Below, in pieces: positions 1,907 through 50,949 of a stretch of DNA of 64,000 nt. The position numbers and the translations under genes are program-made. How positions within the stretch are numbered: position 1 is the stretch's first letter; each line of letters begins with the position of its first letter. The stretch lies in the NCBI GenBank assembly GCA_963737155.1, contig CAVTRN010000002.1, positions 96,001 to 160,000 on the forward strand, read 5' to 3'. The notes below the pieces were generated by a model that worked only from the letters and a program-made list of their open reading frames with translations, searched no databases and was not told the origin of the DNA. This DNA comes from Nitrospirota bacterium (lineage in GTDB: Bacteria; Nitrospirota; UBA9217).

Positions 1907-2897
<991 letters not shown>

Positions 2898-3257: not shown

Positions 3258-3279
3258 GTATGCCCCCGTATCTCACTTC

Positions 3280-3308
3280 TTTATACATCATATTTGATGT
3301 ATTGTCAA
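3280..3308 (-). promoter_or_regulatory. Sigma70 promoter of the higBA-like operon with an overlapping palindromic operator
   Basis: Minus strand TTGACA-17-TATAAA; the palindrome ATACATCA-tatt-TGATGTAT covers the spacer. Confidence 0.7.
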
Positions 3309-5629: not shown

Positions 5630-5864
5630 TGCTGCCTCCTTTGCTCCATCGGGTCTAAAAAATTATCATGAGCCAAGGATAACATTCATCCCCGCAGTTG
5701 TAGAGCGGAAGGCATTCTTTGATGGTTCATGGCTTGAAAAAGTCTACGATTCATATTATATCAATAAATATGAGCATTAATTATGTCATGATAATCGCCT
5801 TGCAGATTCAAGATCATGCTGATGTAATCGAAGTGAGATTTATTGGATGATGTTAACAAAATCG

Positions 5865-5917
5865 GACTGTAACTTTATGAGTTTAGAGAGATGGAAACTA
5901 TAACAACTTCAGGAAGC
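5865..5917 (+). repeat. CACCTAC-family repeat, distal left arm only (no core)
   Basis: GTAACTTTAT...ATGGAAACT...CAGGAAG matches the distal left arm of the copies at 18.6, 33.9, 40.9 and 45.1 kb. Confidence 0.55.
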
Positions 5918-6046
5918 ATTAAGCTATAAATATTATATCTTTCGTCATGCGATTTTCATGCCGTATTTAGCAAGAGTCCAGAGTGAACGGCTGATTTGAT
6001 ACAGCGTACCGTACTTTCTGTAAAGCACTGCGACGGACTGCGTACA

Positions 6047-6613
6047 TTATTTCATTACAAACAGGGTAAAGGTCTGGTCAGGCAGAAAGTCGAAGGATGC
6101 TTCTGTGATGTAGCTAGCCTTTTCCATCTCCCGTATGATAACTTCAGGGATCGTATGATGGCCAAGGAGGGAGACAAAACCAAAGCCCTTTTTCTTATGT
6201 TCGATGATCGCAACTTTGCCACCCGGCTTGAGATGTCTTTTGAGCTTGGCGAAAAAGTCAGCCGGCTCTAGCAGATGGTGAAACACGTTCCTAGCGAAGA
6301 CTAGGTCGAGGCCTGCTTCAGGCAAGTCTATTTTACCGTCGGCAGCGAGTATGAACGTGATGTTGCCAAGACCCGTATGCTCAGCTTGACGCCTGATGAA
6401 ATCCAGGTACTTCTTTTTGATGTCAACAGCGTAGACCTGTCCGGTCTTTGCTGCTCGAGTTGCAAAGGCAAGCGTGAAATATCCTCCCCCTGACCCGATG
6501 TCTGCAATCGCCTGCCCGTTCCGGATATGAAGTTGTTCGAGAATTTCCTCTGGTCTGCTTCTGGGAGAGGATGCCTCCCGGTTCAGCATTTTCAAAAAGA
6601 ACGACGTAAACAT
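6047..6613 (-). CDS. Class I SAM-dependent methyltransferase
   Basis: IADIGSGGGYF motif I, VYAVDI, LKPGGKV. ATG at 6613 preferred over 6667. Confidence 0.88.
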   Translation of the reverse strand: MFTSFFLKMLNREASSPRSRPEEILEQLHIRNGQAIADIGSGGGYFTLAFATRAAKTGQVYAVDIKKKYLDFIRRQAEHTGLGNITFILAADGKIDLPEAGLDLVFARNVFHHLLEPADFFAKLKRHLKPGGKVAIIEHKKKGFGFVSLLGHHTIPEVIIREMEKASYITEASFDFLPDQTFTLFVMK

Positions 6614-6746
6614 TGCACAGCTCCTCACGATGCGGCTTAACTTATGATGCCGTCTGCCCTGGCTCATGACTTGCAGATTCTAGAGTGAAATAAGCGCTAA
6701 ATGTTTCGACTAATAATTCTTACTACCACAATATCTGGCGTTCATC

Positions 6747-6785
6747 GTCTTCACCTACAATCATGTATCAGCATTGACAATATTT
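6747..6785 (+). repeat. CACCTAC-family repeat (core 6752-6758 plus right arm)
   Basis: GTCTTCACCTAC-AATCA-TGTATCAGCATTGAC. Confidence 0.65.
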
Positions 6786-6937
6786 CAATGAAGGATACTG
6801 GCTGAAAAATACATAAGTAAAAGAATTGGCCGTAGTAATTATTTATCTAGGGTTTGTTGAGCACTTTGGGCTGCGGCGTCAGCGTATCGGGAAACAGCCC
6901 GAGGATGTCCAAAGAGAACAACGGGTCGTCTCTGCGC

Positions 6938-7684
6938 TTATGCAAGCCGCTCCAGAAGCCAGTTGGAGACCCGCCGGTAATCATGGGCCCCGTTCGAGCT
7001 CGACCAATACATCACCGCCGGCAGTCCGCTGCTTGGTGCTTCGGCGAGCGCCACGTTCTCGCGAACCGCAGGTCCGATGATGCCGCCTGGCACAAGGTTT
7101 CCCATCATTGCAAGAAACTCTTCGTGGATCCGCCGCCGTGCCTGGGCCCTGCATGGAATAATACCGAGGATGGCGAGAGCCGGATTCTGCGCTCTGAATG
7201 CATTCACGGTTTGGATCATCTGGTTCAATCCCTGATATGAGAGAAAGTTGGCCTCCACGGGGATGACGACATGGGAACTGACCTGTAAGGCATTCATAGT
7301 GAGCACACTAACACTGGGAGGACAGTCGATAATGATGAAGTCCCAGTCTCCGTTCGTGCACGCAAGGCACTGCATCAGAAGCTTGCTTCCGATGGATCCG
7401 GAAAATCTCTGCGTCGCTTCTGCAAGCACATGTCCTGACGGAACGAGATCCACACCCGGTGTCTTGGTTGGTAGAATGGGCAGGGCGCTCGTGGTCTGTA
7501 AGGCCTGGAGAAGAGCGCTGCCGTCGTCAGCTATTCCCAGGGATATGCTCGCGTTACCCTGGGGGTCGAAATCAATGATGAGCACTTTCTTTCCTATCTC
7601 CCCCCAGCATGCCGCAATGTTCACTGCCGAGGTGGTTTTCCCAACGCCGCCTTTGTGATTCATAATTGAGACAACTTGCTTCAT
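6938..7684 (-). CDS. ParA/Soj family ATPase with no adjacent parB
   Basis: Deviant Walker A KGGVGKTT, DFDPQGN, IIDCPPS. Confidence 0.92.
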   Translation of the reverse strand: MKQVVSIMNHKGGVGKTTSAVNIAACWGEIGKKVLIIDFDPQGNASISLGIADDGSALLQALQTTSALPILPTKTPGVDLVPSGHVLAEATQRFSGSIGSKLLMQCLACTNGDWDFIIIDCPPSVSVLTMNALQVSSHVVIPVEANFLSYQGLNQMIQTVNAFRAQNPALAILGIIPCRAQARRRIHEEFLAMMGNLVPGGIIGPAVRENVALAEAPSSGLPAVMYWSSSNGAHDYRRVSNWLLERLA

Positions 7685-7935
7685 ACACCCTCCGTAATAA
7701 AAGTCACCGAATGAACTAAAGATCCATCTTGCGGGCTGAATGCTCTTCCTATGTTCGCTTTTTCCAGCCTCCTAACTGAACGTCAAAATTTTCTCTAGAT
7801 ATACCGTTAACCATCATTGTGATCAATCCTTGTGAACATGAGAGAACGGCAAAAACATCGTTCTGAGAGGGTCGAGTTCCACCGTTAAAAGTGTGAAGTC
7901 CGCCATTTAGAATAATACTTGTCGTATTTAGAACG

Positions 7936-7964
7936 ACTATATGCCTGATATAAAGAGATGTCAA
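7936..7964 (-). promoter_or_regulatory. Sigma70-like promoter upstream of parA
   Basis: TTGACA-17-TATAGT; related sequence at 40748-40776. Confidence 0.6.
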
Positions 7965-10224: not shown

Positions 10225-10806
10225 CTACTGAACAGTAAAGGTTGCAGATTTCATAAGATTGCCTTTGTCGTCCAAGACATAAACCCTCCACTCGCCCTTC
10301 ATACCGTTGATCTTCTTGCTGACCCATGTCCGGAACCTCGGATAAGGCTTGATGGCAAGAGGTATTTTGTCCATCTCGTTTTGGCCGAGCATCCACACTA
10401 CGTAAACGGTGGTTTCCGTTTTTACATATTTAAACTCAAGATAGCAATACACCTTCTCCTGATTAGCTGGATACATCGTTCCTATGTCTAGCGGTGTCCG
10501 ATCCATCACGCCAGCGCCGATTTCCATCCGCAAAATTGTGAGGTTCCGAGCAGGAGCCGGGGCATGGGCGGTCCCTGTAGTCGTCCTGATCGGCACTACC
10601 GTCGACCGCGGAGCAGGAGCCGGGGCATGGGCAGTCCCTGTAGTCGTCGTGATCGGCACTACCGTCGACCGCAGAGCAGAAGCCGGGGCACTGGCAGTCC
10701 CTGTAGTCGTCGTGGTCGGCACTACCGTCGCACGACGTACTGGTGAGACCGTTACACATGCTGAAAAAAGCATTAGAACAATGCCAAGGACTATGGGTTT
10801 TCCCAT
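10225..10806 (-). CDS. Lipoprotein with Thr/Pro-rich linker and C-terminal DUF2914-like domain
   Basis: Lipobox-like FSAC; C-terminal VYCY...V.VVW...FRTWVSK...GEWRV.VLD. Confidence 0.7.
   Translation of the reverse strand: MGKPIVLGIVLMLFSACVTVSPVRRATVVPTTTTTGTASAPASALRSTVVPITTTTGTAHAPAPAPRSTVVPIRTTTGTAHAPAPARNLTILRMEIGAGVMDRTPLDIGTMYPANQEKVYCYLEFKYVKTETTVYVVWMLGQNEMDKIPLAIKPYPRFRTWVSKKINGMKGEWRVYVLDDKGNLMKSATFTVQ
10548..10730. repeat. Three tandem 63-bp coding repeats (21-aa Thr/Pro/Ala unit)
   Basis: Units start at 10548, 10611 and 10674; protein unit STVVPITTTTGTAHAPAPAPR. Confidence 0.9.
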
Positions 10807-10994
10807 AATATCACCTCATCTAAATCTACTCTGAATTGGTTGTATTCAAATTAAGCCACATGAGCACTTACATTTCCCTAAAACCAAGCCGTAGACATGC
10901 CATCTCCAATAATTTAGTGCTGTATAACGAGGACTGCTAGAGGGTAACGAAGACATTGACATAATGCCTTCCGGTTATTCACTCAGTCCTTGCA

Positions 10995-13900
10995 TTAGAC
11001 TCCCAGAGTGAAATACACTGTCGCCCCTTTTCCGACTTCCCCCTCCGCCCAGACCGCACCACCATGACGGCGGATGATGCGTTCGACGATGGCAAGACCG
11101 ATTCCTGTACCCTCAAACTCCTTCTCCGTATGAAGTCGCTGGAACGGGAGGAACACTTTGTTCGCGTACGTCATATCAAACCCGGCGCCATTGTCCCTGA
11201 TGTAATAGACTGTATTCCCATCCTTTTCAAAGGCACTGAATTCAATGCGGGCATTCGTTGTTTTTGAAGTGAACTTCCAGGCGTTTTCAAGCAGGTTCGC
11301 AAGCGCAATTTTGAACAGGTTCGGGTCCACATAGGCGCGCAAGCCTTCAGTGAGCGCTACTTCTACACTTCTTTTGGAATCTGCCTCGCGAAGGCCGATC
11401 TCAATCGAGGCAACCAACTTGCTGAGGTCATAGTCCATCCGGTCGATATTCTGCTTTGATATACTCGAAAGGCGCAGCATGTCATCGATGAGGCCGGTCA
11501 TTTTCTCTGCGGCGTTTGTTATGCGCGTCAAATAATCTTTCGGCTGGTCTTCCAGCTTGCTGCCGTAATCTTCGATAAGGATTTTGGAGAAACCGGCCAT
11601 GATGCGGAGGGGGGCCCGCAGATCATGAGAAACCGAATAGATGAAGGCCTCCATCTCTTTGTTCGCGGCTTCCAGCTCCAGGTTTCTTGTCGCCATGTCT
11701 TCGGAGAGTTTCAGCACGGCCACCTCCGCCTTCTTGCGCTCGGTTACATCTTCAAAGATCGCAGCGAAGTATCCATTTATCGGGCTGTAGGCCGATACGG
11801 AATACCATTTACCTAGGGGCTCCGCAAATTGCTGGAATCTAACCTCCTGCCCGCTGAGCGCCACCCTCCCATAGGTTCCGATCCAGTCTGCCGGGTCGTT
11901 CTCAATGCCGGGAAGCGCATCTCGCACGCCTTTGCCAATGATGTCGGTTCTCTTAAGACCAGTCTGTTTCTCAAAAGCTTCGTTTACCTCAAGGAAAACG
12001 TAATCCACGGGTTTGCCGTTTTTATCGGCAACGATTCTATGATAGGCAAAACCATTGATCATGTTTTCAAAGAGGGAGTGGTATTTGGCCTCGTTTGCTC
12101 TAAGCGCCTCCTCGGCCCGTTTGCGCTCGGTGATGTCCGTATTCGTGCCGAACCACCGGAGGATTTTCCCTGCAGAATCCTGCAACGGCATCACGCGCGT
12201 CAGGAAGGGGCGAAATACCCCGTCGGTTCCACGCAGCGGGAATTCCATGTCAAACGGCTCGCCGGTGGCGATGGATGCCTTCCATCGCTCAAGAACTTTC
12301 GGCAGCACCTCGGGATCGTGGACTGATTGCCAGCCCCAGCCCTCCATCTGTGCGGGCGTCTTTCCCGTGTATTCATACCAGCGCCGGTTATACCACGTGA
12401 TATAACCGTCCGCGTTTGCCCACCACGCAAGGTTAGGGATGGAATTGGCCAGGGTGCGGAACTGTTCCTCGTTCTCTCGCAACGCCTCGTCAGCCTTGAA
12501 CTTCGCAAGGGCCACGGCCAAATAGTCGGAAAGCCGCTCCCATTGGTTTATCGAGTTTTCAGTGAAGCGCCCCTTTCTACGGTCGTTCAACTGGAGGAGT
12601 CCAAGTCGCTCCCGGCCGAGCATCAAGCTGATCAGGGCCACCGACTCGTAGCCTTCTCCGTTACAGCGGTTTCGCGTGCGGGCCTGTCGGTCAACATCAG
12701 TTGTTGCCGCGAGGAGGTCCGTCGTGCAGTTGGACCAGAAACTGCCTCTCCGCGTGAAAAAAGGTTTTGACGGGTCGAACCTTCCGCAGATCACGTTGCC
12801 GCACATGCAGGCGAGCACGGGATTGCCGACGCTGTCTAGGATAGGTTTTCCTTCCTTGTCGCAGTTGCACAAGCTGCTTTCCAGTTGAACGAACTCCTTT
12901 GAAAATCCGCGTGTCTCGAAATAGGGGTAATCGTGCCCTTCATGAAGCCGTATCCCAACTGCTTCGCAGCCCGAGCGCTCCTGGAAGAAGTCCGTAACTA
13001 AATGGATCAATGTTTTGGTGTCCTTGCTTTCGTTCACGAGCCTCAGGAATTTGACTGTCATTTCCCGCTCTTCATCCGCCTTCTTGCGTTCGGTGATGTC
13101 TACTAGGACGTGGACCGCGCCGCGCGGGCGACCCAGATCATCGAGCAGGGGCGTGCCGTAACCCAACACGTGGCGGGTTGCGCCGTCGTCGAAGACAAGG
13201 CTGAACTCAAAATCCCGCACGTGTTCGCCACGGGCGGCACGCTGCGCGGGGAGTTCGTCAAGCCTCAGCTCACGCCCATCCTTGACCGCCTTGAAATGTC
13301 GTGGCTTGACCGCAGGGGGCGCCGATAACGAGATCTCGACGCCGTGTGGATGCTGCAGCAGTTCATTCGCCGCGGGGTTGCCCGTCATGTGAGTGGAGTC
13401 AGGGTCATGGACGATGATAACAGGGACTGGCGCGGCTTCGAGCGTGGCGGCCAACTCCTCCGCCCGATTCCGTTCGCGGCGCTCGCTATCCCGCAGTGCT
13501 TCCTCCGCCTGCGAATGCTCGATCAGGTCTGCGGCCTGCCGTGCCAGCAGGTCGATTCCCCAAAGATCGAGCTTATCGGGGGAATAGGGAACGCCGCATT
13601 GAGTGGTCAGAATACCCAGCAGCGCGCCTGAGCGGCTTATCAGGGGCGTGGATTGCACCGCTCGCACACCGGCGTCGCGCAGCACAACAAGCGAAGGCGT
13701 CCCGGCAAACAGGTCATCCGTCTCTACATCCGGGACGATGACGCGCTTCGCGCACTTCATCGCCGCTCCGCAGACAGACGCTTTATTTTCTGCATGTGCG
13801 AAGTAATCCAGAAAGGGTTGTCGATGGCCATGATGCGCAACGATCCGCAACGAATCGCCTTCAACTAATTGCAGCGTGCCGCGGTCGGCCCTCATAATGG

Positions 13901-23447: not shown

Positions 23448-24973
23448 GACAGGTTATACTGTTTTTAGTTGAAATTGAAAAGAGTGGCTCCCCCGTGGCA
23501 TAATCCACGGTAGAGAGAGAAAAAAGAAAGGAGCCACTCAATGAAGGATACCACAAGGAAGAGAAAAAAGGCAATACGAGGAATTGAAGAGGCATACGGA
23601 AGGCGGGAGATCATCGAACAGATGTATTGTGTCTTCGCAAAAGGGAAACAGGGTTTTGATGAATGCATGAAGGAAATGGGCAGAATGATGGCAGAGACGA
23701 TCATGTACATCGAGCGGGAGGAGATTGCCGGCCCCGACTACCAGCCTAACAGTCCCGATCTGCGGAAGTGGGCTAGCCAGGGCGGTTCCGTCTATATCGG
23801 AGATCAGAAGATCCCGGTGACCCACCCTCGGCTTCGAGGTCCGGCGGGTGAGATTGTACTGCAGAGCTATCAGAAGATGAAAAAACCGGAAGTCTTCGCA
23901 GAAGAATTGCTTGGAAAGGTGCTTCGGGGCATATCATGCCGGAAGTATGCGGAGACAGTTGTAGATACGGCACGAGCATTTGGAGTGTCCGCCAGCACGG
24001 TATCGAGCCATATCGTCGCGGCAACAGCAAAACAGCTTCAGGAGTTTAAGGAACGGTCACTCACGTCATTCGTTCCCTTTTCGGTCTTTTTAGACACTGT
24101 TCACCGCGGCGGAGAGGCATTCATCGTGGCGCTGGGGCTTGATATTGCCGGAAAGAAGCAGACATTGGGGTTCTGGCAGGGGGCGACGGAGAACCATGAA
24201 CTGTGTGAAGAGCTGTTTTCTGATATAGAGCGGCGGGGTCTGATACTTTCACGACGAATCATCTGGGTTACCGATGGCGGCAAGGGCGTAATCAAGGCAC
24301 TCCGGGATCGCTTCGGTAAGAAACTCATCCATCAGCGGTGCACGATCCACAAGGACCGGAATATACAGCATCATTTGCCGAAGAAATACCGGAAAGGCGC
24401 ACACTGGAGGTTCCGGACAGCCCTGGAGCAGAATAATTACGCGGACGCTCGTCAGATGCTTCTGGACATGGAGAAATGGCTTCGGGGCATTAATGAGTCG
24501 GCGGCTGATTCGCTCATGGAAGCGATAGAAGACATTCTCACCCTTCATCGATTGAAGGTCCCCGCTCTCTTGAGGAAGACGTTGCATTCTACCAATCCTA
24601 TCGAGAGCATGTTTTCCACGGTGAGAAAAGCAGAAGGCAATATAAAGCGCTACCGCGACAGCAAGATGATGCAGCGCTGGCTCGCTTCTGTCCTCTTATA
24701 TGCTGAACAAGGATTCAGAAAGATCAAGGGCCACGCCTTCATCGCGAACGTGATGAAACGGATCGAAACGGAAGAATTAAATGACCTAACAGTCAAAGAG
24801 GCTGCGTAAAGGGGGATGGTTAGGTATGGCTCGGCCTCAGAAAACTCACATATGGCGATCCTACGAATCCGATTTTATAAACAGCGATGATTTACACCGT
24901 TGAACCGATAAAAATACTTTAGCCGAAGGGAACGGGCCACTCAGATAATTTCAACTAAAAGCTTGACCTCGTC
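23448..24973 (+). mobile_element. IS256-family insertion sequence
   Basis: Imperfect terminal IRs (GAC...TTTTAGTTGAAATT...GAGTGGC / GCCACTC...AATTTCAACTAAAA...GTC); flanking direct repeat AACAGAA at 23441-23447 and 24974-24980. Confidence 0.88.
23541..24809 (+). CDS. IS256-family (Mutator-like) DDE transposase
   Basis: FLDTV, VTDGGKG, HQRCTIHK, STNPIES motifs. Confidence 0.93.
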   Translation: MKDTTRKRKKAIRGIEEAYGRREIIEQMYCVFAKGKQGFDECMKEMGRMMAETIMYIEREEIAGPDYQPNSPDLRKWASQGGSVYIGDQKIPVTHPRLRGPAGEIVLQSYQKMKKPEVFAEELLGKVLRGISCRKYAETVVDTARAFGVSASTVSSHIVAATAKQLQEFKERSLTSFVPFSVFLDTVHRGGEAFIVALGLDIAGKKQTLGFWQGATENHELCEELFSDIERRGLILSRRIIWVTDGGKGVIKALRDRFGKKLIHQRCTIHKDRNIQHHLPKKYRKGAHWRFRTALEQNNYADARQMLLDMEKWLRGINESAADSLMEAIEDILTLHRLKVPALLRKTLHSTNPIESMFSTVRKAEGNIKRYRDSKMMQRWLASVLLYAEQGFRKIKGHAFIANVMKRIETEELNDLTVKEAA

Positions 24974-29079: not shown

Positions 29080-29340
29080 TCAGAACCTCACCAACGACCT
29101 CCCTTGTGCGTCAACGCTTCGCTCAATGGCACGCTTATCAGCGGCTCTCTCAAAGCGATTGGCTGAACGTAGTCTTGAAAAGTGTTCAATCCATACGGGG
29201 CAAATCCAATCTCCGCTTGGATCGTCTTTAATCTTCGTCGGTTGACCGACTATAAGTCGTGACGACATTAATCGTCCGTCTTGAAGCTTATAATGCCATA
29301 TATCCTCTGCAATCGGATGGTCAATTCGGTCAATAACCAT
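29080..29340 (-). CDS. Hypothetical protein (possibly truncated)
   Basis: ORF with an AAGGTG RBS-like sequence upstream; no recognisable family. Confidence 0.3.
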   Translation of the reverse strand: MVIDRIDHPIAEDIWHYKLQDGRLMSSRLIVGQPTKIKDDPSGDWICPVWIEHFSRLRSANRFERAADKRAIERSVDAQGRSLVRF

Positions 29341-29648: not shown

Positions 29649-32444
29649 TTAACTCACGGAAGTCTTGGGGCCCTTCGTTATCTCCACTAAATTTTTTAAG
29701 CCGACAGGGGATGATATTCTTATACTTTTTGCAGCTTTGAACTTGTCGATGTCGATCTCTTCAGATAAAAAGAACTTGAGAAGCGATTTGTCTTGGAACC
29801 TACAAGTTTGTGCGATTCCAAGCAATAGCAGGTAATGTAGGGCAACTGTTTTGAAAAACGTTCCGGAAATCTTTCTTTGAACAGCAAGGTGCCTGAGGGC
29901 ATTTTCTGCCGTGTTGTTGTGCCAAGGAATACCATCTAACTCGAGAAAGGTGAAAAGGCTCTCTCTATAGCGGTGAAAACGCTTTTGATATTTAGCAACT
30001 AGTTCACAATTAATGGGTGCATTATCGATGTTTTTCCGATAGAATCGGTCGACAGACTTGCTAAATTTGCAAAGATGCCGTCTCTTTAGCCCGTATTTCT
30101 CCTCTGCCTTAAAGATAGGGACTAGCAGATCCTTAACCTCGCTGACAAATGCCTCATATACTTGGTTATATGGATTACTCCAAAGATCATCATTGAGATC
30201 TCGTATGAGGTGAACTAAACATTTTTGTTGTGCGCAAGTGACAGCATCGTAGCCTCCATAGAAATCGGAAATCAACACACCCTTATAGTTAGACAAAAAC
30301 TCATGGACAATGGTCGACTCTCGCGTCTCAGTCATTCTGAAGACAACATGCTTTCCATCGGTAAACACCCAGGCATAATGATCAGTTCCCTGAATATTGA
30401 TTCGCGTCTCGTCAGCGTGAACAAAAGGACTTTCCATGATGCGCTGAATCGTCAACTTCTCAGTCGTAGTATAGTATTGGGCAAAGTCATTGATGAAGCT
30501 GACCAAACTCCCTTCACTTGCGCTCTCATGAAATATCTCCTCCATTTCTTGGATGATAATGCGATAAGGAAGGCGCAGAACTATTCTGGCATGGATTACC
30601 CAAGCCTTGAAAGCATGCCCAAAAAGTTGCGTCCCGAGTGATGAAATCTTCGGTGGCGGATAATGTTTGCCACACTTCAGACAGTAACCTTGGGTGCCAA
30701 TATATTTCGTCGCAGTTCTTCTACAACCGGCTTTCGTGAAGCGCAGGCTGATAATGAATTTCTCTGCAATTCTCTCCGATTTCTCAAGGGATTGCCCCTT
30801 GTGTTTTGGACAGGTTCTCTTCGGTGCCACCCGAATGACAGTATCGGCCCTTGAAGTAACTTTTCTCCGATATCCCTGATGACCTTTCTGTCCGCCCCTT
30901 TTTTTCCCCTCAGTCTCTGTGGTGTTATATCCTGGACGAATGCTTACTCTATTTTTATTGTAGTCGGCATGGGCATATACAATGATATTATGCAATCCCC
31001 TGTGAATCTGATGGCCGAGTTCAGTAGTGTGCCGTTTTGGCTGATCGGCAAAATCAATATCACTGTATGTATCTGCACTTGCGCTGATCCTTGAGAGTTC
31101 CTCTAGCAAGAACCAGAGTGCCTCGCAGTCCTCTTTATTGTAAGTTACCAATATCTCCTTATGTTGGCTTTCCCCGGCCTCCCAGAGATGTCGCCATACT
31201 AGACTTTGGAGTCCAGACGCATTAGGCATGGTCCAAGATGCGCCGACGAGTTTCCCTATATCCTTTAGATTATTTGACCTGGTTGGGAAATACACTTTGC
31301 CGTAGATACTGGCATTCAGGTTGACAAATCGTTTTTTGAGCGCCTCACAATCAGTCTGATATATTTGCGCCATTGCATCAATCGATCGTGGTTCATAACT
31401 CCCATAGTGATATATCGGCGCTTCAGGATATCTGTTGATCTTTTCAAGAGCTTCAGCCCAGATCCGCCGCTCGTCTTCAGGCGAATTAGCCCAAAAGGAA
31501 TGATAGGAGCGGTTCCCCTGCTCATTGATCAGGAGACCGATTAAGTAGTGGAAGTTTTGGTCTGGGATCCCTTCGATATCGAGAAACAGCTCTACCTCGC
31601 GCCTGAGTATTGTAGGGCGTTCTTGAATATATGTTATCCCCGTTCTGAGTGCTAATGCTTGCAACTCAACTTTGAAAGGTACCGGGGCTCTGGCTCGTCG
31701 CTTCCGGCTACGCCTTGGCTTGAAGGCATAGGAGAGTTGCGTAACTGTAAAGATGCCTTTCTTGTGATACTTCAGAATTGCTTTTGGCGTGACTCGATCC
31801 AGTAAACTGAGGTCGTCAGCCTTTTCTGCTTGCACTAAACAGCTTTTCCTAAATTGGCAAGTCGAGCAATGTTTGTTTAATATCACTGGAGGTGATATTG
31901 CTGGTGAACTGCCTGTCCATTGCCTCAATGCATTGATCATCGGCATCAATGTTCGGCTCGCGGATGCCATTCCTACTTTATGAGCCTGACCATCCGCGCA
32001 AACAATTGTTCCAGACGAAGGCAACTTAAACTGCAATTGACCGAGCACATATCCAACAAACAAAAGGGAGAGCTTCTGCTCTTTCGTAACCTGATGTGTA
32101 CCCACAATGCTTATCGGCTCGTAACTATAACTGCCGAGAGATGAGGTACGATGCACTTTCGTGAGCACGTCACAGCCAGCTTTTAAATCGTGCAACTTGA
32201 GTGCGACGTCCAGAAGAACATTCTCGCCGCTTGAGAGAGCAGCAGCGTTCCCGGAGCTCAGGCTAGGATGTTCTTTCTCGATAAGATTCAAATATTTAAT
32301 TCGGCTTTGATGTGCTTGTTCTTCAAGTAAATGCCAATACTCATGGGGTATTCCCTGATCTTCCAAGCAAAGAAGAAGAAATGCTTTTCGAGAGCATTGC
32401 GAGTATGCAACAACAACTTCAGGGGTAATAATTTTCGTTTCCAT
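29649..32444 (-). CDS. RecB/Cas4-like (TM0106-type) nuclease - RNase H-like - zinc finger - IS66 DDE transposase fusion (931 aa)
   Basis: YSQC ... CSTCQFRKSC four-Cys pattern; LDIEGIPD...YNKEDC; CPKH...CLKC; HADET, ISDFYGGY, QKCLVHLIRD, WHNNTAENALR IS66 core. Confidence 0.88.
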   Translation of the reverse strand: METKIITPEVVVAYSQCSRKAFLLLCLEDQGIPHEYWHLLEEQAHQSRIKYLNLIEKEHPSLSSGNAAALSSGENVLLDVALKLHDLKAGCDVLTKVHRTSSLGSYSYEPISIVGTHQVTKEQKLSLLFVGYVLGQLQFKLPSSGTIVCADGQAHKVGMASASRTLMPMINALRQWTGSSPAISPPVILNKHCSTCQFRKSCLVQAEKADDLSLLDRVTPKAILKYHKKGIFTVTQLSYAFKPRRSRKRRARAPVPFKVELQALALRTGITYIQERPTILRREVELFLDIEGIPDQNFHYLIGLLINEQGNRSYHSFWANSPEDERRIWAEALEKINRYPEAPIYHYGSYEPRSIDAMAQIYQTDCEALKKRFVNLNASIYGKVYFPTRSNNLKDIGKLVGASWTMPNASGLQSLVWRHLWEAGESQHKEILVTYNKEDCEALWFLLEELSRISASADTYSDIDFADQPKRHTTELGHQIHRGLHNIIVYAHADYNKNRVSIRPGYNTTETEGKKRGGQKGHQGYRRKVTSRADTVIRVAPKRTCPKHKGQSLEKSERIAEKFIISLRFTKAGCRRTATKYIGTQGYCLKCGKHYPPPKISSLGTQLFGHAFKAWVIHARIVLRLPYRIIIQEMEEIFHESASEGSLVSFINDFAQYYTTTEKLTIQRIMESPFVHADETRINIQGTDHYAWVFTDGKHVVFRMTETRESTIVHEFLSNYKGVLISDFYGGYDAVTCAQQKCLVHLIRDLNDDLWSNPYNQVYEAFVSEVKDLLVPIFKAEEKYGLKRRHLCKFSKSVDRFYRKNIDNAPINCELVAKYQKRFHRYRESLFTFLELDGIPWHNNTAENALRHLAVQRKISGTFFKTVALHYLLLLGIAQTCRFQDKSLLKFFLSEEIDIDKFKAAKSIRISSPVGLKNLVEITKGPKTSVS

Positions 32445-32800
32445 TCAACCCCATGCCAATCTTTCTTCAAGGACGCCTGATGTTTATGCTTCTGAGCGCT
32501 TATTCTGAAAGAAACTGGTTGACTATGCCTATGCGCGCCGATGACATCGGGTTTCAAATGAATTTTTTCTTCAAATCAAGGGTATAGATTACAGCATTGT
32601 ATCGGCGTAGGACCTGTGTCTTGGAGATGCCTGATGCAAAAACAGCAATTCAGGTTAGAGCCACTAGCAATACAATTAACATAGTCGAACAAACTGTTGA
32701 ACTTAATTGACAATTTGGTGGGGTTCGTGAGGAAACTCAGGGTTATTCCTATTGTGTTTTTTTCTCGAAATGTTTGATATAGAAACCGTTGACTGCGTAG

Positions 32801-33193
32801 TTAGTTCTGTAGTGACGCCGTGATTGCGATAGCGATATTTCTCGCGGCATCTTTCGCTTGCAATGCTTTATCCTTCGTGTAATGAACGGGCCAGTGAACA
32901 GGATAGCGGGTGTCAATATACGAAGTATTTAAAAACTCGCAAAAAGTCATCAGAGGTAAAAGCAAAGAGTTCTTTTCAGCGCATGTTTCGAGCAAAATGA
33001 CTAGATTATGCTGTTTCTCGAATTTCAGGTCATGAGCGACAATAAAAGCTTTCAGATACTTCTCCGCTGCCTGATGAAAATGAAAACAGATTTGTGCGTA
33101 AAACTCATTACCTTCTCCAAGGACGGCACTCGCGAAATTGAAATCTTCATCCGCCTTATTCAGCCAAACCTGAACGACCTGCGGATCAGCCAT
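32801..33193 (-). CDS. HEPN domain protein (toxin of an HEPN/MNT pair)
   Basis: WLNKADEDF...CFHFHQAAEKYLKA...HNL..L...RYP. Confidence 0.9.
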   Translation of the reverse strand: MADPQVVQVWLNKADEDFNFASAVLGEGNEFYAQICFHFHQAAEKYLKAFIVAHDLKFEKQHNLVILLETCAEKNSLLLPLMTFCEFLNTSYIDTRYPVHWPVHYTKDKALQAKDAARNIAIAITASLQN

Positions 33194-33506
33194 AGAGAAG
33201 CTTCCCTTCATTAAGTATCTTTTTCAAGAATGGGTCGCCTAAAGCAAACCACTTTTCAACTTCTTCAGGCTTATACACGATATAATCAACCGCTGCATGA
33301 GTCTTCATTAAGCGGTAAAGTTCGTTTATCCGGTCGCTGCCGTAATAGGGAACATTTTCTTTCACGATGAAAAAATCCAGATCGTTCACTTCGCTACCGC
33401 TTCCCCAGGCTGCGGAACCGAAGAGTATGATCTTCTCAGGCTGATATTTCTCGATAAGCTGGTTCTTGATGCTGTCTATTTCCAGCGTGATTTCTATTTT
33501 TGTCAT
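33186..33506 (-). CDS. Minimal nucleotidyltransferase (MNT antitoxin)
   Basis: PEKIILFGSAAWG...DLDFFIV; overlaps the HEPN start. Confidence 0.9.
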   Translation of the reverse strand: MTKIEITLEIDSIKNQLIEKYQPEKIILFGSAAWGSGSEVNDLDFFIVKENVPYYGSDRINELYRLMKTHAAVDYIVYKPEEVEKWFALGDPFLKKILNEGKLLYG

Positions 33507-33834
33507 ATGATTAACTCTATCATACGGAGTAAGGGTCTGAGCATGAATGAGTAAATGTTGGCTCACTGGTCAAATGCATACAATAAACTATCCCGCTGCA
33601 AGCCGCGGGGAATACAACCCAGAATGGTAATTAAAGAATACCGTAAAACACAGACGAATTCAATGATAAACTTAACTTCGGCATTTAAGAGTGGATCTCG
33701 TTTGAATTTAATAATAGCTGGCATAATCAAAATGCGATTACATATCTCGTATAGCCAACAATCAAATATAGACTCGCGGTATTAACATTTGGTCAGTCCA
33801 TCCAGTCTTTCATGATATTCGACGGCGTTGTCAA

Positions 33835-37654: not shown

Positions 37655-38128
37655 CTAACGGGTAGGAGCAAGGGCCTTAATCGCGTCCTTAAATTCCTTG
37701 ATAAGGCCGCCGGCACCGTGAGCAGCATCAATCAATGAACCAAGTACTGCGTCTACAGCTTCCAGGACCGATCGGAAACCTGTACGGACCGTAAGCTGAC
37801 CTTGCCAGCGACGCCATGACTTCGAAACTCTTGCCAATACAGCGTACTTGAATCTCACAGCGGAGCCAACAAGCCCGTGATGTTTCAATTGCGATTCGGG
37901 AATCTTTGTTATCTTTACTTTAAGGTACTCCGCCGCTGGCAAGACATCATCCCGTAACGTCTTCTCAGCCAGTGATATTAATTGCGCGTCATCCCTCCAT
38001 AGCCTCACGGTGAAATCTTTAGACTTGACCAATAGGGTCAGCAACTCAACAGTTTCGTCAACAAAGAGGACTAGCGTATCCCTCTGCGGGTCTTGGACTT
38101 GGCCAATCTTCACGAAGAAGCGAGACAT
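37655..38128 (-). CDS. Hypothetical protein
   Basis: 157-aa ORF with a GGGGG RBS; no family recognised. Confidence 0.55.
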   Translation of the reverse strand: MSRFFVKIGQVQDPQRDTLVLFVDETVELLTLLVKSKDFTVRLWRDDAQLISLAEKTLRDDVLPAAEYLKVKITKIPESQLKHHGLVGSAVRFKYAVLARVSKSWRRWQGQLTVRTGFRSVLEAVDAVLGSLIDAAHGAGGLIKEFKDAIKALAPTR

Positions 38129-38585
38129 ACATACCCCCTGACAACCGAGGATAAATTACTTTGCCTGCTTTCTTAAATATGTTACAAACATTGGGTGTCT
38201 TTTTATGTAATTTTAAAAGCGGCTTACTGTCAATTTCGTGCATTCTGGCAAGGGTCTCGAATTGTTTGCGAATAAGCGTCAAAGCTTCAATGATATCGCC
38301 TTGCATGAATAGGTCGTTTATCAAGTAATGAGTACGAATGAAAGATGTAGAAAGGATTATTTGATAGGAAGTCTTTTCAGTCGTGTTGTTGATTTTATTA
38401 GATGCTTGCTCTTGAGCTATTTTAGCCATGAGGCCATCAATAAATATTCGAAGTGTATTTTCGCCTTCTTTTTCCTGGGTTTTATAGTATTGACGAGTTT
38501 TCTCACGAGCCTCAAGACATTTGCCTTGATACTCACATGCGTTTTTCATTAGTTCTTCGATTATTTCTTGTGTGATATTCGTCAT
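38058..38585 (-). pseudogene. Cassette-type hypothetical protein, 3' truncated
   Basis: ATG 10 bp after the attC R' box; AT-rich coding ends abruptly near 38140 and runs into the next gene's leader. Confidence 0.5.
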
Positions 38586-38595
38586 TGGTTTTCGT

Positions 38596-38655
38596 TTATA
38601 ACGAGCGCGTGACGCGCCGCTTTCTGGCGTGTCGCCGTCCACGCACAGGTTGGAC
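38596..38655 (-). other. Integron attC recombination site
   Basis: Minus strand R'' GTCCAAC, L'' GCGTGGAC pairing with L' GTCACGC around one extra-helical G, R' GTTATAA; 60 bp, between two co-oriented ORFs. Confidence 0.75.
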
Positions 38656-38731
38656 TCCCTAAGTCCAATCAACATTATTTTGTCGGCAGCTAGTGTGCCC
38701 CCATGATGACTATAGGGACAGTTTCTGTCAC

Positions 38732-39721
38732 TTAATCATTAGTCAAGCTATAGTAATTCATTTGACCGGTATGAATTATTCCCGCCTTTACTTTTTCCTC
38801 GAAGTCGTGTCTGTCCTCGATAAAAGAATTTTCAACATGCTTTGTAAAATAAACGTAATAATCATATTTATAGTTCAGACCGTCAAGAAATAAAGTGGCT
38901 TCTTTAATGGGATTGATGATATGTACATCAAGGCTTTTGTCGATCTTGTTTTTTGTATCTTGAATAAACTTTGTTGAGACATTAATTTCAGCCATGAATT
39001 TTAAAGGTTCAATTTTTAAGTCAGGGGAAAATTTAAACAAGATGTCACCTTGTTCTTTAATCTTGATCAGTGATTGAACAAGCTTATATTTATTATAAAT
39101 AAAAATATTTTTCCATTCGATAGTTGTCTTCTCTTTCCTCTTCAGGATAATATTGACTTCGAATTCTTCTGCATCTCGGTTCATCGCTGCATATTTATTA
39201 AAGTCCCTATTAAATTCTACTATTAACCTCTGAAGCTTTAGATAATTGCTCGTCGGGACAGCATTAAAAATACCCTTCTCTAGATTGGGCAATTTGGGAT
39301 CGGCTGAAAAGAAGTGATCTATTGTATCCTGCTCATCAGCCATCCCGATTGGACCAATGAGCGGAGTGCATTCGTCATATTTATGGAGCAAAGACGTGTC
39401 AATATAATACCGCCTATATTTCTCAATTGACGGCTCTTCTTGAATTCCTCTTGTAGAAATTGAATTAGGCTGATTTGTAAGGATTTTGTTATGTTCGAAT
39501 GCTAAATATCTAAGATAATTTGTTATGTACTCTGTTAGGAAATCTCTTGCGTTGTTTAAAATGAGAAGTTGTTCTCCACTATGAATATCAGCTGCACTTT
39601 TCGTTACGGACTCATTCAGTTGGTAGACACCGTAGCTGAGGATTATCATTACGATTGTCAGAACCATTGGAATAATTTCCTTCCAATATGTCTTCAATTT
39701 TTCCATAAACTGCAAAGTCAT
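38732..39721 (-). CDS. Hypothetical membrane-anchored protein (AT-rich, cassette-like)
   Basis: Single N-terminal TM helix; followed by attC. Confidence 0.6.
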   Translation of the reverse strand: MTLQFMEKLKTYWKEIIPMVLTIVMIILSYGVYQLNESVTKSAADIHSGEQLLILNNARDFLTEYITNYLRYLAFEHNKILTNQPNSISTRGIQEEPSIEKYRRYYIDTSLLHKYDECTPLIGPIGMADEQDTIDHFFSADPKLPNLEKGIFNAVPTSNYLKLQRLIVEFNRDFNKYAAMNRDAEEFEVNIILKRKEKTTIEWKNIFIYNKYKLVQSLIKIKEQGDILFKFSPDLKIEPLKFMAEINVSTKFIQDTKNKIDKSLDVHIINPIKEATLFLDGLNYKYDYYVYFTKHVENSFIEDRHDFEEKVKAGIIHTGQMNYYSLTND

Positions 39722-39792
39722 TTCCGTATCCCCATAATGCTCAAGCAAGAATTGATTTATTTTTCGATGTAAAGTAATCCCGTTGGGTTCCG

Positions 39793-40575
39793 CTATGCTT
39801 TACCCGACCTACCGATTTTAGCGGTCATCTTTTTTTCAAGCTCATCTCTTAACGCACCGAAATGAGCCTCGCGATGATGCTCGGCGCAAAGGGCGATCAC
39901 ATTAGTTATTCGATCTGCGCCATCATTGGCCAACGAAATAATATGATGTGTTTCCAGATAAATAGTTCCATCGGGGCGAGCAAATCCGTGTTTGCCGCAC
40001 AACTCACATAGTCCTTTAGCCCGCGCCTCAACTGTTCTCCTAACTTGGGGATCTCTCGCATATCTGGTCCCTGAAATTAATTCCTTCTCAGGCCTGTCAG
40101 ATCCTAAGTCATTAACGGCATCCTGATCTTGTAGAAAGGGTGCTTCGGTAAGCTGCTGATATAGTTGGCTCTCTGGAATTCTTCTTTTTACTTCTGCCCA
40201 CGCCGCGTGATTGCCATAGCCCTCAAGCGCAATAAGGGCTTTATCTATAGCTGCAAAATCAGCATCTATGAAGATATGGGCAAGAGAGCGTTTGATAACT
40301 GCTTCTCTAACTCCCGCTGGAGTACCTTTCACCCATGCTTTAGGATTGATCTTACCAGATGCAGCACGAACGGCAACCAAAGCCAGAACTGGAGTTTTCG
40401 CAAGTGATGCAGCCGCATCTAGCAGGTCACAAACCTGAGCTATTGCGCGCGCATTTTTATTTGGAAGCCCAAGTTCCTTTGCTGCCGTCTGATATGTCAG
40501 AAGCCTATGGGTTGGATATGCATCGCGAATAATTGAAAGAAGACGATGGGCTAACTGATGTTGGATTAAGCTCAT
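39793..40575 (-). CDS. HNH endonuclease
   Basis: RDPQVR...CELC...YLETHHII.L..DG.D...NVIALC.EHH.E.H. Confidence 0.88.
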   Translation of the reverse strand: MSLIQHQLAHRLLSIIRDAYPTHRLLTYQTAAKELGLPNKNARAIAQVCDLLDAAASLAKTPVLALVAVRAASGKINPKAWVKGTPAGVREAVIKRSLAHIFIDADFAAIDKALIALEGYGNHAAWAEVKRRIPESQLYQQLTEAPFLQDQDAVNDLGSDRPEKELISGTRYARDPQVRRTVEARAKGLCELCGKHGFARPDGTIYLETHHIISLANDGADRITNVIALCAEHHREAHFGALRDELEKKMTAKIGRSGKA

Positions 40576-41508: not shown

Positions 41509-43392
41509 GATGGTCTCGTAATAAGTCGATAGTCGTGATTCAGCTAAAATAAGTCATGTGAAACATCATATAACCATTGCAGCACAAGGGGTTTTGTGAT
41601 ACACAATAGCATCACAATTCGCAATCAAGGAGCCAGAATGATCCACATCAAGGATCACAAAACCCCCGACATGTTCGACCCCTTTCCTTTTCTGGGACCC
41701 AAACGCAAACAGCGCATCGAGGAGTCCTGGGCAAAGGTTTTTCGAGAGCACATTCTTCCCACGTTGCCGGTAGAGAAGATCTTTTCCAAATACGATCCGG
41801 TTTTCGGAGCACCGACCAAGGAACTCTATGCCATGATCGGTCTCATGGTCATCCAACAGATGCACAACCTGACCGACGAGGAAGCCGTGGACCAGTTTGC
41901 CTACAATCTCCAATGGCAATACGCCCTGAATATCACCAGGACGGACGATGCCGCCGCTTATGTCAGCCCCAAGACCCTCTGGAACATGCGCGATCTTCTG
42001 ATCGAACGGAACCTCTACCAGGCTATTTTTGAAGAAGTCGCGACGAAGCTTGCCGAGGTGTTCAAAGTCGATGTCGCCAAGCAGCGTTTCGACTCGGTCC
42101 ATATCTTCTCCAATATGCGACACCTGGGCCGGCTCGGCTTGTTCGTAAAGACCATCAAGAAGTTCCTGGTGAACCTCAAGCGCCACCATAAAGACCTCTA
42201 CGAATCATTAGAGACAACTATCACCGACCGGTACATGACCAAACAGGGTGAGGCCGTTTTCTCCATGGTGAAACCCTCGGAATCGATAAATACGCTCGCA
42301 ACGCTGGCCAACGACGTGTTCAGTCTGGTGGAGCAGTTCGCGGGAAATGAGCCCGTTACCACCATGAATACCTATCAGCTCCTTGCCCGGCTGCTTAAAG
42401 AGCAATGCATCGTGGAGCGCGTTGATACGCATACAACCCAGGTCTCGGTCAAAGCCAACAAGGACGTTCCTTCCGATTCCCTGCAAAACCCTTCCGACCC
42501 CGACGCCGGGTATGACGGTCATAAAGGCAAGGGCTACCAGGTGCAGGTTGCCGAAAGCTACAGTACTTCCGAGGATACCAACACCCTGAACTTGATCACC
42601 AGCGTGATCGTAGAACCTGCCCACAAGAGCGATGCCCATGCCCTGGTCCCGCTCATCGAATCCACCACGGAGCTTGGGCTGAAGCCTGAAGAAATTGCTG
42701 CCGACTCACTCTACGGTAGCGATGAAAACTGCGAGAAGGCAAAGACCTTGGGAATCGAGGTCGTTTCTCCGGTTATGGGCAAACTTGACGAAAACAGCGT
42801 GCCGCTCACGGCATTCACCATGAACAGCGAAAACGAAATCACTTTCTGCCCCGAGGGATGCGCTCCGGAGAAAACCCGGAGCAAAGACAACAACCACACT
42901 GCGCTCTTCTCAAAGAAAACGTGCCGCAGTTGTTCCCGGAAGAAAACGTGTCCGACAATGCCCGGTAAAAAAGGTCGCTATCTTCGGTACGACGATAAAG
43001 CAATCCGGCTGGCACAGCGGCGGGCTCAGGAAGACACTCCCGAGTTCCGGGATAGGTACCGCTTCCGGGCAGGGGTCGAAGGAACCATGTCTCAGCTTGA
43101 CCGATTGACCGGGGTCAAGAACCTCCGCGTCCGAGGATTGTCCGCAGTGAGCTTCGCCGCGTACCTGAAGGCGGCGGGAATCAACATTATCCGGGCGGCG
43201 GCGTTCCGCAAGCGAGAAATCGAAGGGGAACCAGTGCCTAGAGCCGCCCTTTCGATTCTATCTTGTGCTGTCAAAGAACGTTTACAGCTTGTTTCAGATA
43301 CAATCAGGCGTTGGGGTTATTTCCAACGGCTGGATATCCGGCTTGCGGCGTGATAAGCCGCAATACGATAATTTACTTCTTACGAATCCATC
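41509..43392 (+). mobile_element. IS1182-like insertion sequence
   Basis: IRs GATGGTCTCGTAATAAGT / ACTTCTTACGAATCCATC; 6-bp TSD AAATAT at 41503-41508 and 43393-43398. Confidence 0.9.
41638..43353 (+). CDS. DDE transposase (IS1182/IS5-like)
   Basis: G.P.KEL N-terminal domain, QRFDSVH, SDPDAGY, ADSLYG, Y..RAGVEG.MS. Confidence 0.88.
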   Translation: MIHIKDHKTPDMFDPFPFLGPKRKQRIEESWAKVFREHILPTLPVEKIFSKYDPVFGAPTKELYAMIGLMVIQQMHNLTDEEAVDQFAYNLQWQYALNITRTDDAAAYVSPKTLWNMRDLLIERNLYQAIFEEVATKLAEVFKVDVAKQRFDSVHIFSNMRHLGRLGLFVKTIKKFLVNLKRHHKDLYESLETTITDRYMTKQGEAVFSMVKPSESINTLATLANDVFSLVEQFAGNEPVTTMNTYQLLARLLKEQCIVERVDTHTTQVSVKANKDVPSDSLQNPSDPDAGYDGHKGKGYQVQVAESYSTSEDTNTLNLITSVIVEPAHKSDAHALVPLIESTTELGLKPEEIAADSLYGSDENCEKAKTLGIEVVSPVMGKLDENSVPLTAFTMNSENEITFCPEGCAPEKTRSKDNNHTALFSKKTCRSCSRKKTCPTMPGKKGRYLRYDDKAIRLAQRRAQEDTPEFRDRYRFRAGVEGTMSQLDRLTGVKNLRVRGLSAVSFAAYLKAAGINIIRAAAFRKREIEGEPVPRAALSILSCAVKERLQLVSDTIRRWGYFQRLDIRLAA

Positions 43393-49112: not shown

Positions 49113-50507
49113 GCACCTCCCATGAAGAGGTTTGTCAAGTGCCGCCCTTGAATTTTATGTTAAATTCTACTATTGCAGTATGTTTTGTGAAACCGCATCA
49201 GTCTCGCCAAGTGGTTCGGTTATTTATAAGGGAATCAGCCATCCTCCCATTCGAGCTCACCCTTCAGGTGTCTCACCTTATTGATGCTGATGGCACGCCC
49301 ATTCTACAAGCCGGTTTTTTCAACCAAGGTGTATGCGCGGGGCTGTGCCAAACCGTTGATTCCTATATATCCCGGTTCATCTTTGTGAGAGCTGATCTTC
49401 TTGATGCTTCCCTCCTCGCGTTGTGTTAACTCGTCCGCAACAAACTTGCATCATAAGGTTTCCGATCACGAAGCACGTAAAAGATAATCTCTGTCAACTT
49501 TCTTGCCAATGCGACCACTGCAGTTTTGTTGCCTCTTCTCCTGGCTATACGTTCATACCACTTCCTCAATGGTTTGCTTTCACTGTTTGTACTCCGTAGT
49601 ATTGCATGTGCACTCTGAACTGCAACATGTCTGATTTCGCTTCGTCCCTCGCGGGTTATATGGCCATAATCAGCTCGCTCTCCGCTACTAAACACACTTG
49701 GCACAAGACCGCAATAACTCGTTAACTGCTTTGCCCGCTTGAATCGCTTTATGGTCGAGATCGCGGCATAATAGGTCTTGGAGGATACCTCGCCGATTCC
49801 GGGCACGCTCTTCATTAAATCAACATCCTTATTATCGTAGTCCGCAATCACGTCATCCAGTGCCTCTTTTTGTTTTTGAAGTTCAGCTATTTTTTTTCCA
49901 TAGCCCTCAATGATTGGACTTAGGTGTTTGGGAATGCTTTTATTCTCCTGGAGCCTTGTAAAGATCGATTCATCATCAAATGCTTTTTTCTTAAGCTTTA
50001 TTCCTTCCTGTCGCAGCATACCCCGCAGATGGTTCTTAAGGCATGTTGAACTCTTAAAAAGTTGATGTCGAGATCGTAACAAATCGCGTAACTCTCGACT
50101 ATCTCCTTCTGCCACATATACTCTTTCAGGTAATTCATCTATCCGTAATAACTTCGCAAGAAACATCGCATCTACCTTGTCGGTCTATTTCTTGTTCTTG
50201 GCGATTAGCTTTACCTTGTTGGGATTAACGATATAAACGTTTATCCCCAGCTTCTTGAGTGTATCGTGTATCCAACGGCTATGGCCGCCTGCCTCAACCG
50301 CAACCTTTACGGGCTTATTTATCCACTTTATGAAGTACTGTCTATAGCGATCCTTATCTGTAGGGATCCCTAAGCTCTCAACCTTTTTTCCTTTATCATC
50401 GGTGACGTACACATAACTGCTTTTCTCAGATACATCGCATCCAATGTAAAACATGGTGACTGCCTCCTTACTGTGATATTTATTTTCTCTAATCACAGAG
50501 TAGCACC
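49113..50507 (-). mobile_element. IS110-family element with a long 3' non-coding end
   Basis: Transposase plus about 310 bp of downstream non-coding DNA ending CTTGACAAACCTCTTCATGGGAGGTGC; shared GCACC at 49113-49117 and 50503-50507. Ends are inferred. Confidence 0.7.
49426..50454 (-). pseudogene. IS110 DEDD transposase with one nonsense codon
   Basis: YIGCDVSE, VAVEAG, KNKK*TDKVDA (TAG at 50185-50187), SVPGIG, YCGLVPSVFSSG, VALARKL. Confidence 0.9.
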
Positions 50508-50949
50508 GAATATTTGTTTTTTCTCCTTTCTTCATAATATCTACAAGTGTGTAGTTCTCATTGATTGAAACAATCAACAAATTCAGGTTCAAAATTTCTG
50601 CAGTATGTAGTCAGTCTGCTTACGACGAGGATGCGCTTGACATTATCCATTGTTTCCTCCTACGGTGCAGTTTGCACAGAGAGATGCTCTCTTTTTCACT
50701 TTTATATTGCAGCACAGTGCTGATCATTTCCCTTCACAGGAACCGCAAGAGAGGGCTTATGCCACTCTGCACGCCACACGATGCAGGTTGATCGTGTATC
50801 GGGTACGGTCGTCCCATGTGTCCAGTGGGTATATAATGTCCGCAGTAATAAGATGAGAACTTACAGTAACTATAACTATGCGGTGATATGCTATATTTTA
50901 AACGTACATGGAGTGACCGAATACGAAGATAATACTATAGTCATTAAAC

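Follow-up and report, generated by a model that had tools for sequence, protein, structure and literature searches.

An intact TM0106-like–IS66 transposase fusion in a Nitrospirota genome, with close relatives carried as integron gene cassettes

The window, the whole stretch of DNA analysed here, comprises 64,000 nucleotides from a Nitrospirota bacterium (UBA9217; assembly GCA_963737155.1, contig CAVTRN010000002.1, positions 96,001 to 160,000). It contains an intact open reading frame (ORF) for a 931-aa protein in which a module resembling the RecB-like putative nuclease TM0106 is fused to an IS66 transposase of the ISBst12 type. We found that the close relatives of this gene (≥68% identity) are 2.9-kb integron gene cassettes, moved by the integron integrase (IntI), and that the fusion does not behave as an insertion sequence (IS). 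For the clade of the window gene, this part of our explanation is very probably correct. More tentatively, we favour the view that the protein is a domesticated transposase, carried as single-gene accessory cargo, with a predicted role in defence against incoming phage or plasmid DNA. The fusion had been described in an earlier note made from the sequence alone; the cassette nature of the close relatives is absent from that note and is new here. The parts of the protein are known and the fusion is auto-annotated, and a literature search that left subscription journals and bioRxiv supplements outside its reach found no study of a TM0106–IS66 fusion. Counts given below were made by hand from the tool tables.

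Results

The first sign of cassettes was the presence of attC-like sites in the aligned flanks of the nearest relatives. The locus L005 (79% identity) is a complete integron, and the fusion gene is one of its internal cassettes. IntI is encoded at 5797-6801 (-), with a score of 493 bits against a cut-off of 265. Two attC sites precede the fusion gene, at 7099-7220 (weak) and 7906-7963, and the attC that follows it, at 10793-10880, starts on the final base of the stop codon; a further attC lies at 11420-11484. The site at 7099-7220 is apparently an empty first cassette, an attC without an ORF, between IntI and the first gene cassette. The fusion cassette is 2917 bp long in L005 and 2887 bp in L004.

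A covariance model for attC was built from nine sites in L002, L004, L005, L007, and L009. It was run on 79 metagenome loci held out of training, of which 24 have ≥68% identity; one of these, L086, lacks the C terminus and was dropped, leaving 23. An attC starting at the stop codon was found in 9 of the 23, at 29-87 bits in L064, L067, L069, L070, L071, L072, and L077 and weakly, at 18-20 bits, in L078 and L080, versus none of the 55 more distant loci, not all of which include the 3′ flank and one of which, L085, has a weak site at a greater distance. Not every locus is independent, since L074/L075 and L098/L099 look near-duplicate. Ten genome loci have ≥70% identity, and in five of them a whole attC stands at the stop codon; L005, L007, and L009 supplied training sites, L004 was held out and scored 45.7 bits, and L011 is weak. 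The attC is truncated in L002 and L010, and none was found in L001, L045, and L050. Only the first part of the attC is retained in L002, L073, L079, and L098-L100.

The limits of the shared block are those of a cassette. Upstream, conservation begins at GTTRRRY (GTTAGGC/GTTCGGC), about 40 bp before the start codon, and different whole attC sites precede the block in L004, L005, L064, and L071. Downstream, the attC is homologous between loci and the sequence diverges directly after its GTT, the point given as the integrase crossover (10.64898/2026.03.17.712381). The attC sites of close relatives have R and L stems with extrahelical bases. In an alignment of 26 sites, 88% of the cells pair versus 31-43% in slid controls, although this alignment was fitted to the model, includes one reverse-strand duplicate, and leans toward structure. 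Arrays with IntI or other cassettes, and with varied neighbours, are seen in L005, L009, L004, L064, L067, and L071; the next cassette in L009 encodes an Mrr-type restriction enzyme. Rfam has no family for attC sites, and its sole match was to a group II intron fragment that interrupts the third attC of the L009 array, at 2680-2870.

Two other origins for this arrangement were rejected. IS1111-attC insertion sequences are one group of elements that target attC sites. Another, the group IIC-attC introns, likewise brings a mobile-element enzyme into cassette arrays (PMC3001079). Such elements insert into and split the attC. In L004, L005, L064, and L071, by contrast, each of the two attC sites beside the gene is whole, the upstream one varied and the downstream one inherited with the gene. 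An IS inside a cassette shell was also rejected: the leader is about 35 bp long and shares with the 3′ end no more than the 7-bp core.

Does the fusion behave as an IS? The ISBst12 group of IS66 consists of single-ORF elements, and its member ISDge4 is present in nine copies, with 14-bp repeats and an 8-bp duplication (PMC12898284). The fusion resembles this group in having one ORF, with a zinc finger and a DDE core above the NCBIfam cut-off for IS66, and no need of TnpA/TnpB; it differs in its 450-aa N-terminal TM0106-like module. The earlier note had stressed that tnpA and tnpB are absent. None was indeed found among the seven neighbouring ORFs scanned, but this is not unusual for a group with a single ORF. 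In the window, none of the 25 longest inverted-repeat pairs listed in either of two repeat searches has one arm at each end of the gene, and at 8 other loci no end repeats flank the gene among the five longest pairs shown per locus. The ISBst12-type end motif has 7 matches in the window versus 11.3 expected, none of them near the gene, and the ISDge4-type motif, searched as an exact match, was found in 0 of 160 loci. The flanks of cyanobacterial members lose similarity no more than about 20 bp from the ORF (13 upstream and 12 downstream loci). Inspection by eye of the limits of the shared block revealed no target duplication in the window, where there is no empty site for comparison. The earlier note was correct in seeing no IS66 ends, and the homologues did not turn out to be flanked by ordinary IS66 repeats and 8-bp duplications.

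Copy number was considered in 41 genomes, most of which are fragmented assemblies, which collapse repeats. None has two full-length copies at the same identity level, and second copies, where present, differ by ≥7 points in identity to the query. The complete or near-complete genomes G044, G068, and G080 have one match each, and the window's genome has only the 931-aa copy and one broken paralogue of the same fusion, with 38% identity. This paralogue is in ≥3 pieces at window 3305-5585 (-), 26 kb from the intact copy and beside a Gp49/RelE-type gene. The mobile region containing this paralogue has at its edge a groEL-like gene, at window 1922-2755 (+), that breaks off after about 220 codons, from our own reading of the sequence.

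These results bear on the proposal that the fusion is still a selfish ISBst12-like transposase with short or asymmetric ends that escape notice, in which the fused module processes the element's own ends and the cassette form is one captured, hitchhiking lineage. Such an element would account for the complete IS66 architecture scoring above the NCBIfam cut-off, a DDE triad under selection, a patchy spread over bacteria and archaea, and neighbours that differ even among close relatives. Against it stand the early divergence of the cyanobacterial flanks, the lack of end repeats among the pairs listed for the window and the 8 loci, the lack of same-level full-length pairs in the 41 mostly fragmented genomes as compared with nine copies of ISDge4, and the coincidence of the cassette limits with the IntI crossover rather than with IS ends. 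We consider this proposal unlikely.

The domain structure of the protein is clear from family profiles. The NCBIfam profile TIGR03491 (TM0106) matches residues 8-447 with 241 bits, and NF033517 (IS66) matches residues 519-891 with 180.7 bits, barely above its cut-off of 180. Pfam agrees, placing RNase_H_2 (PF13482) at residues 286-450 and DDE_Tnp_IS66 at residues 607-863. An AlphaFold model obtained from a 96-sequence alignment has a mean pLDDT of 85 and a pTM of 0.59. When parts of this model were compared with known structures, residues 1-209 matched Cas4 (7mi4_A; Z 17.3, rmsd 2.8, 184 aligned) and residues 283-471 matched the proofreading exonuclease domains of family-B polymerases (Z 15-16). 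The top Foldseek match of the model is the ISCth4 DDE transposase (E 1.6e-8). A sequence search of solved structures with the whole 931-aa protein gave no match, and one with a profile of the N-terminal half gave 2 chance-level matches only. The features are collected in Table 1, in which residues 210-282 are given as a putative helix-hairpin-helix (HhH)-like segment and a basic stretch. The earlier note's description of an intact fusion of Fe-S cysteines, RNase H-like domain, zinc finger, and IS66 core is borne out by the profiles and alignments, as is its split four-cysteine pattern of the Cas4 type by the fold and by conservation.

Table 1. Features of the fusion gene and its flanks in the window
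Feature	Position	Strand	Basis
Fusion gene, 931 aa, TM0106-like module + ISBst12-type IS66 transposase	29649..32444	(-)	Family profiles, AlphaFold model
Cas4-like Fe-S domain, residues 1-209; C17, C193, C196, C202 present, nuclease motif III lost (S112-I-V114)	31818..32444	(-)	Fold match 7mi4_A, alignments
Putative HhH-like segment with basic stretch, residues 210-282; DNA binding likely (predicted)	31599..31817	(-)	Conserved in alignments
DEDDy/PolB-type 3′-5′ exonuclease domain, residues 283-451; D289, E291, H346/E351, Y435, D439	31092..31598	(-)	PF13482, fold match, conservation
IS66-type zinc finger; C545, H548, C588, C591	30672..30812	(-)	Alignment conservation
IS66 transposase region, residues 519-891; D678, D727, E847	29772..30890	(-)	NCBIfam, Pfam, Foldseek, codon variation
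Integron crossover core in decayed form, ATCAGGC (GTTAGGC/GTTCGGC at the aligned place in relatives); 5′ boundary of cassette-derived block	32475..32481	(-)	Flank alignment
Cassette leader common to cassette-borne relatives	32445..32474	(-)	Flank alignment
3′ end of block shared with relatives; similarity stops near 29660, just before the attC start of relatives	29655..29700	(-)	Flank alignment

The motifs C17 with C193-x2-C196-x5-C202, D289-I-E291-G, and E438-D439-C440 can be read in the ORF. In the 96-sequence alignment, C193, C196, and C202 are invariant and C17 is nearly so. At nuclease motif III, whose intact pattern was taken as (D/E/Q)-x-K, S112-I-V114 aligns with D-I-R and Q-I-K of two stand-alone TM0106 proteins, which are 24-26% identical to the fusion. 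V114 is invariant in a 17-sequence alignment, and the motif II aspartate, D96, is variable. Because the D-x-K of motif III reads S112-I-V114, with V114 invariant, the Cas4/RecB-like domain is predicted not to be an active nuclease, although it keeps the fold and the four-cysteine Fe-S staple. Thus, of the Cas4/RecB-like nuclease proposed earlier, the fold and staple stand but the activity does not. Given the chemistry of Cas4/RecB nucleases, this domain may be an end-binding scaffold instead. The fusion has the same order of Cas4-like Fe-S domain, HhH-like segment, and DEDDy-type exonuclease as TM0106 proteins (TIGR03491), but it has lost motif III, has a basic stretch in place of the second HhH-like segment, and carries the transposase in addition.

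The exonuclease site, by contrast with the Cas4 site, is intact. D289, E291, H346, Y435, and D439 are invariant in the 96 sequences and E351 is present in ≥90%, which provides the ExoI DxE (D289/E291), the ExoII acidic residue (E351), and the ExoIII YxxxD (Y435/D439) of a DEDDy site on a PolB-exonuclease fold. The conservation of the N-terminal half extends to the transposase: the DDE triad D678/D727/E847 is invariant in 96/96 sequences, the zinc-finger cysteines C545, C588, and C591 are invariant in the same alignment, and H548 is nearly invariant in the 17-sequence alignment. Over 78 codons of the DDE core in six cassette-clade copies, 44 third positions vary versus 16 first and 12 second positions. 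This bias to third positions indicates that the core is under purifying selection. When the best copy was taken from each genome, with one contig-end fragment left out, 35 of the 39 copies were in frames of ≥860 aa; the other 4 are broken or cut.

The window copy is probably a cassette that was acquired horizontally and is now stranded, its attC lost. The N-terminal half of the fusion was found in only 1 of 40 relatives, at 45% identity and in a different context, and so the window gene was probably acquired horizontally. A C-terminal piece was also found in G022 by DNA search. Far from the gene, the window's genome has two attC-like sites, at G000:C1:977832-977901 and C2:2985198-2985254; the second follows a catalase gene and may be a terminator-like hairpin.

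The region around the window gene is rich in IS elements and toxin-antitoxin pairs. Directly upstream, on the same strand, is a nucleotidyltransferase-HEPN pair of toxin-antitoxin type at window 32801-33566 (-), and pairs of this kind also flank L037, L064, L005, and L159. On the other side, an 86-aa ORF without a Pfam family at window 29080-29340 (-) has a 3′ part that by eye resembles the right half of an attC and that the model did not score. A PAS sensor kinase also flanks the gene, from our own reading. Elsewhere in the window, an IS256-family transposase is at 23541-24809; from our own reading, it has terminal repeat-like sequence at 24784-24825, and two further transposase-like genes lie at 41596-43353 and 49426-50592. 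Four co-oriented genes, mostly of unknown function, at 37655-40575 (-) are a possible small defence island; the last encodes an HNH protein that PADLOC matches to a type IV restriction-like model (E 3.5e-17). No tRNA was found in the window and no promoter-like site in 32440-32820.

The 931-aa fusion is conserved and widespread. Of 7999 scored candidates, 2716 passed E 0.001, although some of these may have one module only; the best 120 candidates have ≥52% identity, and 119 of them carry both Pfam domains. Related loci are labelled in their record titles as proteobacteria, cyanobacteria, planctomycetes, Chloroflexi, and archaea. The Bacteroidota-labelled members L046, L047, and L048 (G080:C1:2242549-2243391) match only from residue ~182, and the G080 member is in a 1145-aa frame, which suggests that another N-terminal domain replaces the Cas4-like part. 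In viral contigs, a weak search by two peptide patterns gave no confirmed relative.

Most family members lie outside integrons, since IntI lies within ~4 kb of the gene in only 2 of 43 genomes and scores over the cut-off anywhere in 11; the other 32 have none over the cut-off. Some members at 45-53% identity are nonetheless in or beside cassette arrays (L037, L049, L096, L114, and weakly L085). In L049 (49%) an attC follows the gene. L037 (46%), whose frame is broken by an internal stop, is in an array behind IntI and a type II restriction-modification (RM) system, and no attC can be clearly assigned to it. In L096 and L114 attC sites lie upstream of the gene, and no own attC was seen in the short flank of L114. 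In L103, three attC sites at 3037-4770 (-), on the strand opposite a 49% homologue, form a separate array that abuts the gene.

These arrays raise the question of whether the protein captures DNA in the manner of Cas4-DnaQ-Cas1, binding, trimming, and integrating fragments, possibly at integron arrays. The set of domains fits such a sequence of steps, and as in Cas4-Cas1 and DnaQ-assisted CRISPR adaptation, a Cas4 fold, a 3′-5′ exonuclease, and an integrase-type domain occur together. The earlier note had drawn this parallel, and it holds as an analogy only: the Cas4 site is dead, the DDE domain is not Cas1, and no Cas2, CRISPR array, other repeat array, or other acceptor for captured DNA was seen near the window gene. 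Taken with the scarcity of IntI near the gene in the 43 genomes, this makes one-protein capture quite improbable.

Outside the cassette clade, more distant members are located on plasmids and islands. Fifteen non-cassette loci were hand-picked for long flanks, and their larger ORFs were scanned; L157 is on the same contig as L022, and L156 is in the same genome as L013. L022 and L157 (G061:C133) are two divergent intact paralogues about 14 kb apart on a contig with phage-like replication genes. Defence-type neighbours were found in 8 of the 15 loci: type II RM directly upstream (L012), pPIWI-RE (L018), an SNF2 helicase of DISARM/BREX type (L033), PDC-M02 directly downstream (L034), a Schlafen-ATPase (L040), a TOTE primase (L075), a DUF499 ATPase (L076), and WYL with REase (L157). 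Genes of mobile elements (integrase, resolvase, relaxase, ParA, or phage-like replication) are near the fusion in 10 of the 15. The latter could mean that the protein helps its carrier elements or its host as an end-processing, repair, or rearrangement enzyme, acting in trans on plasmids, islands, or stranded IS66 ends, and the N-terminal fold is also similar, by Foldseek, to the resection enzyme Dna2. However, there is no fixed partner gene or element type, and the fusion persists as a stand-alone cassette beside unrelated cassettes. A helper role of this kind therefore seems to us an improbable explanation.

Discussion

What, then, is the function of the fusion? A transposase core that is kept under selection while another enzyme moves the gene would need a job other than self-mobility. 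We tentatively propose that the domesticated transposase acts on incoming phage or plasmid DNA. The Fe-S/HhH part would grip a free DNA end, the exonuclease would trim the 3′ strand, and the DDE core would nick the trimmed end or join it to other DNA. The incoming DNA would be destroyed or mis-joined, or the infected cell killed. In the clade of the window gene, the gene would have been packaged as a 2.9-kb cassette and moved by the integron integrase, and the window copy would have been stranded after attC loss.

The context in cassettes and islands points, with less than even confidence, to defence. We also count in its support the rarity of the N-terminal half among the 40 relatives. Cassettes are reported to be enriched in defence functions (PMC10661359). 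Phage-resistance cassettes (BRiCs; 10.1101/2024.07.02.601719) share with the fusion a single ORF, a short leader after GTTRRRY, an attC overlapping the stop codon, varied neighbours, and attC-less homologues outside integrons. In that report, defence cassettes likewise occur partly as cassettes, partly as pseudo-attC copies, and partly as island copies that lack attC. The two published cases are parallels and not evidence on this protein. The fusion is unlike them in that its cassette is ~2.9 kb and encodes an intact DDE core, in that defence is only predicted, and in that the window copy has lost its attC.

Several results weigh against this proposal. PADLOC matched the protein to no defence model except for a weak Cas4 match (E 6.5e-4). 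The counts of neighbours have no background control and come from loci selected for long flanks, and 3 of the 15 loci (L013, L029, and L156) are among ordinary genes. Non-defence cassettes are also present in L004, L005, and L064, namely GNAT, glycosylase, and toxin-antitoxin pairs. In the clade itself, 14 of the 23 metagenome loci have no complete attC at the stop codon, no attC was scored near the window gene with the model filters off, and the window's genome has no IntI over the cut-off. Large cassettes are reported to recombine poorly (10.64898/2026.03.17.712381). One of the six cassette-clade copies, L079, carries D727N. Finally, the interdomain geometry of the AlphaFold model, at pTM 0.59, is uncertain.

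The bolder form of our proposal, which is possible but rather doubtful, is that an endless IS66 transposase was domesticated into a one-protein machine that recognises, trims, and cuts or integrates free DNA ends. Several lineages would have recruited this machine into integron arrays, and it would be a new class of system for defence against phage or for DNA capture. In the most extreme case, it would help to turn foreign DNA into new cargo.

As a rule, a bacterial DDE transposase is tied to ends of its own. A large endless family with a kept triad, a fixed end-binding and trimming module, and cassette mobility would be a clear case of prokaryotic transposase domestication. The cassette form makes the proposal directly testable, as the 2.9-kb unit is complete in itself, its limits are defined, and its three sites can be separated. 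Protection against phage, if it occurs, would mean that a transposase has become the basis of a defence mechanism; integration of foreign ends, if it occurs, would bear on how mobile cargo is captured.

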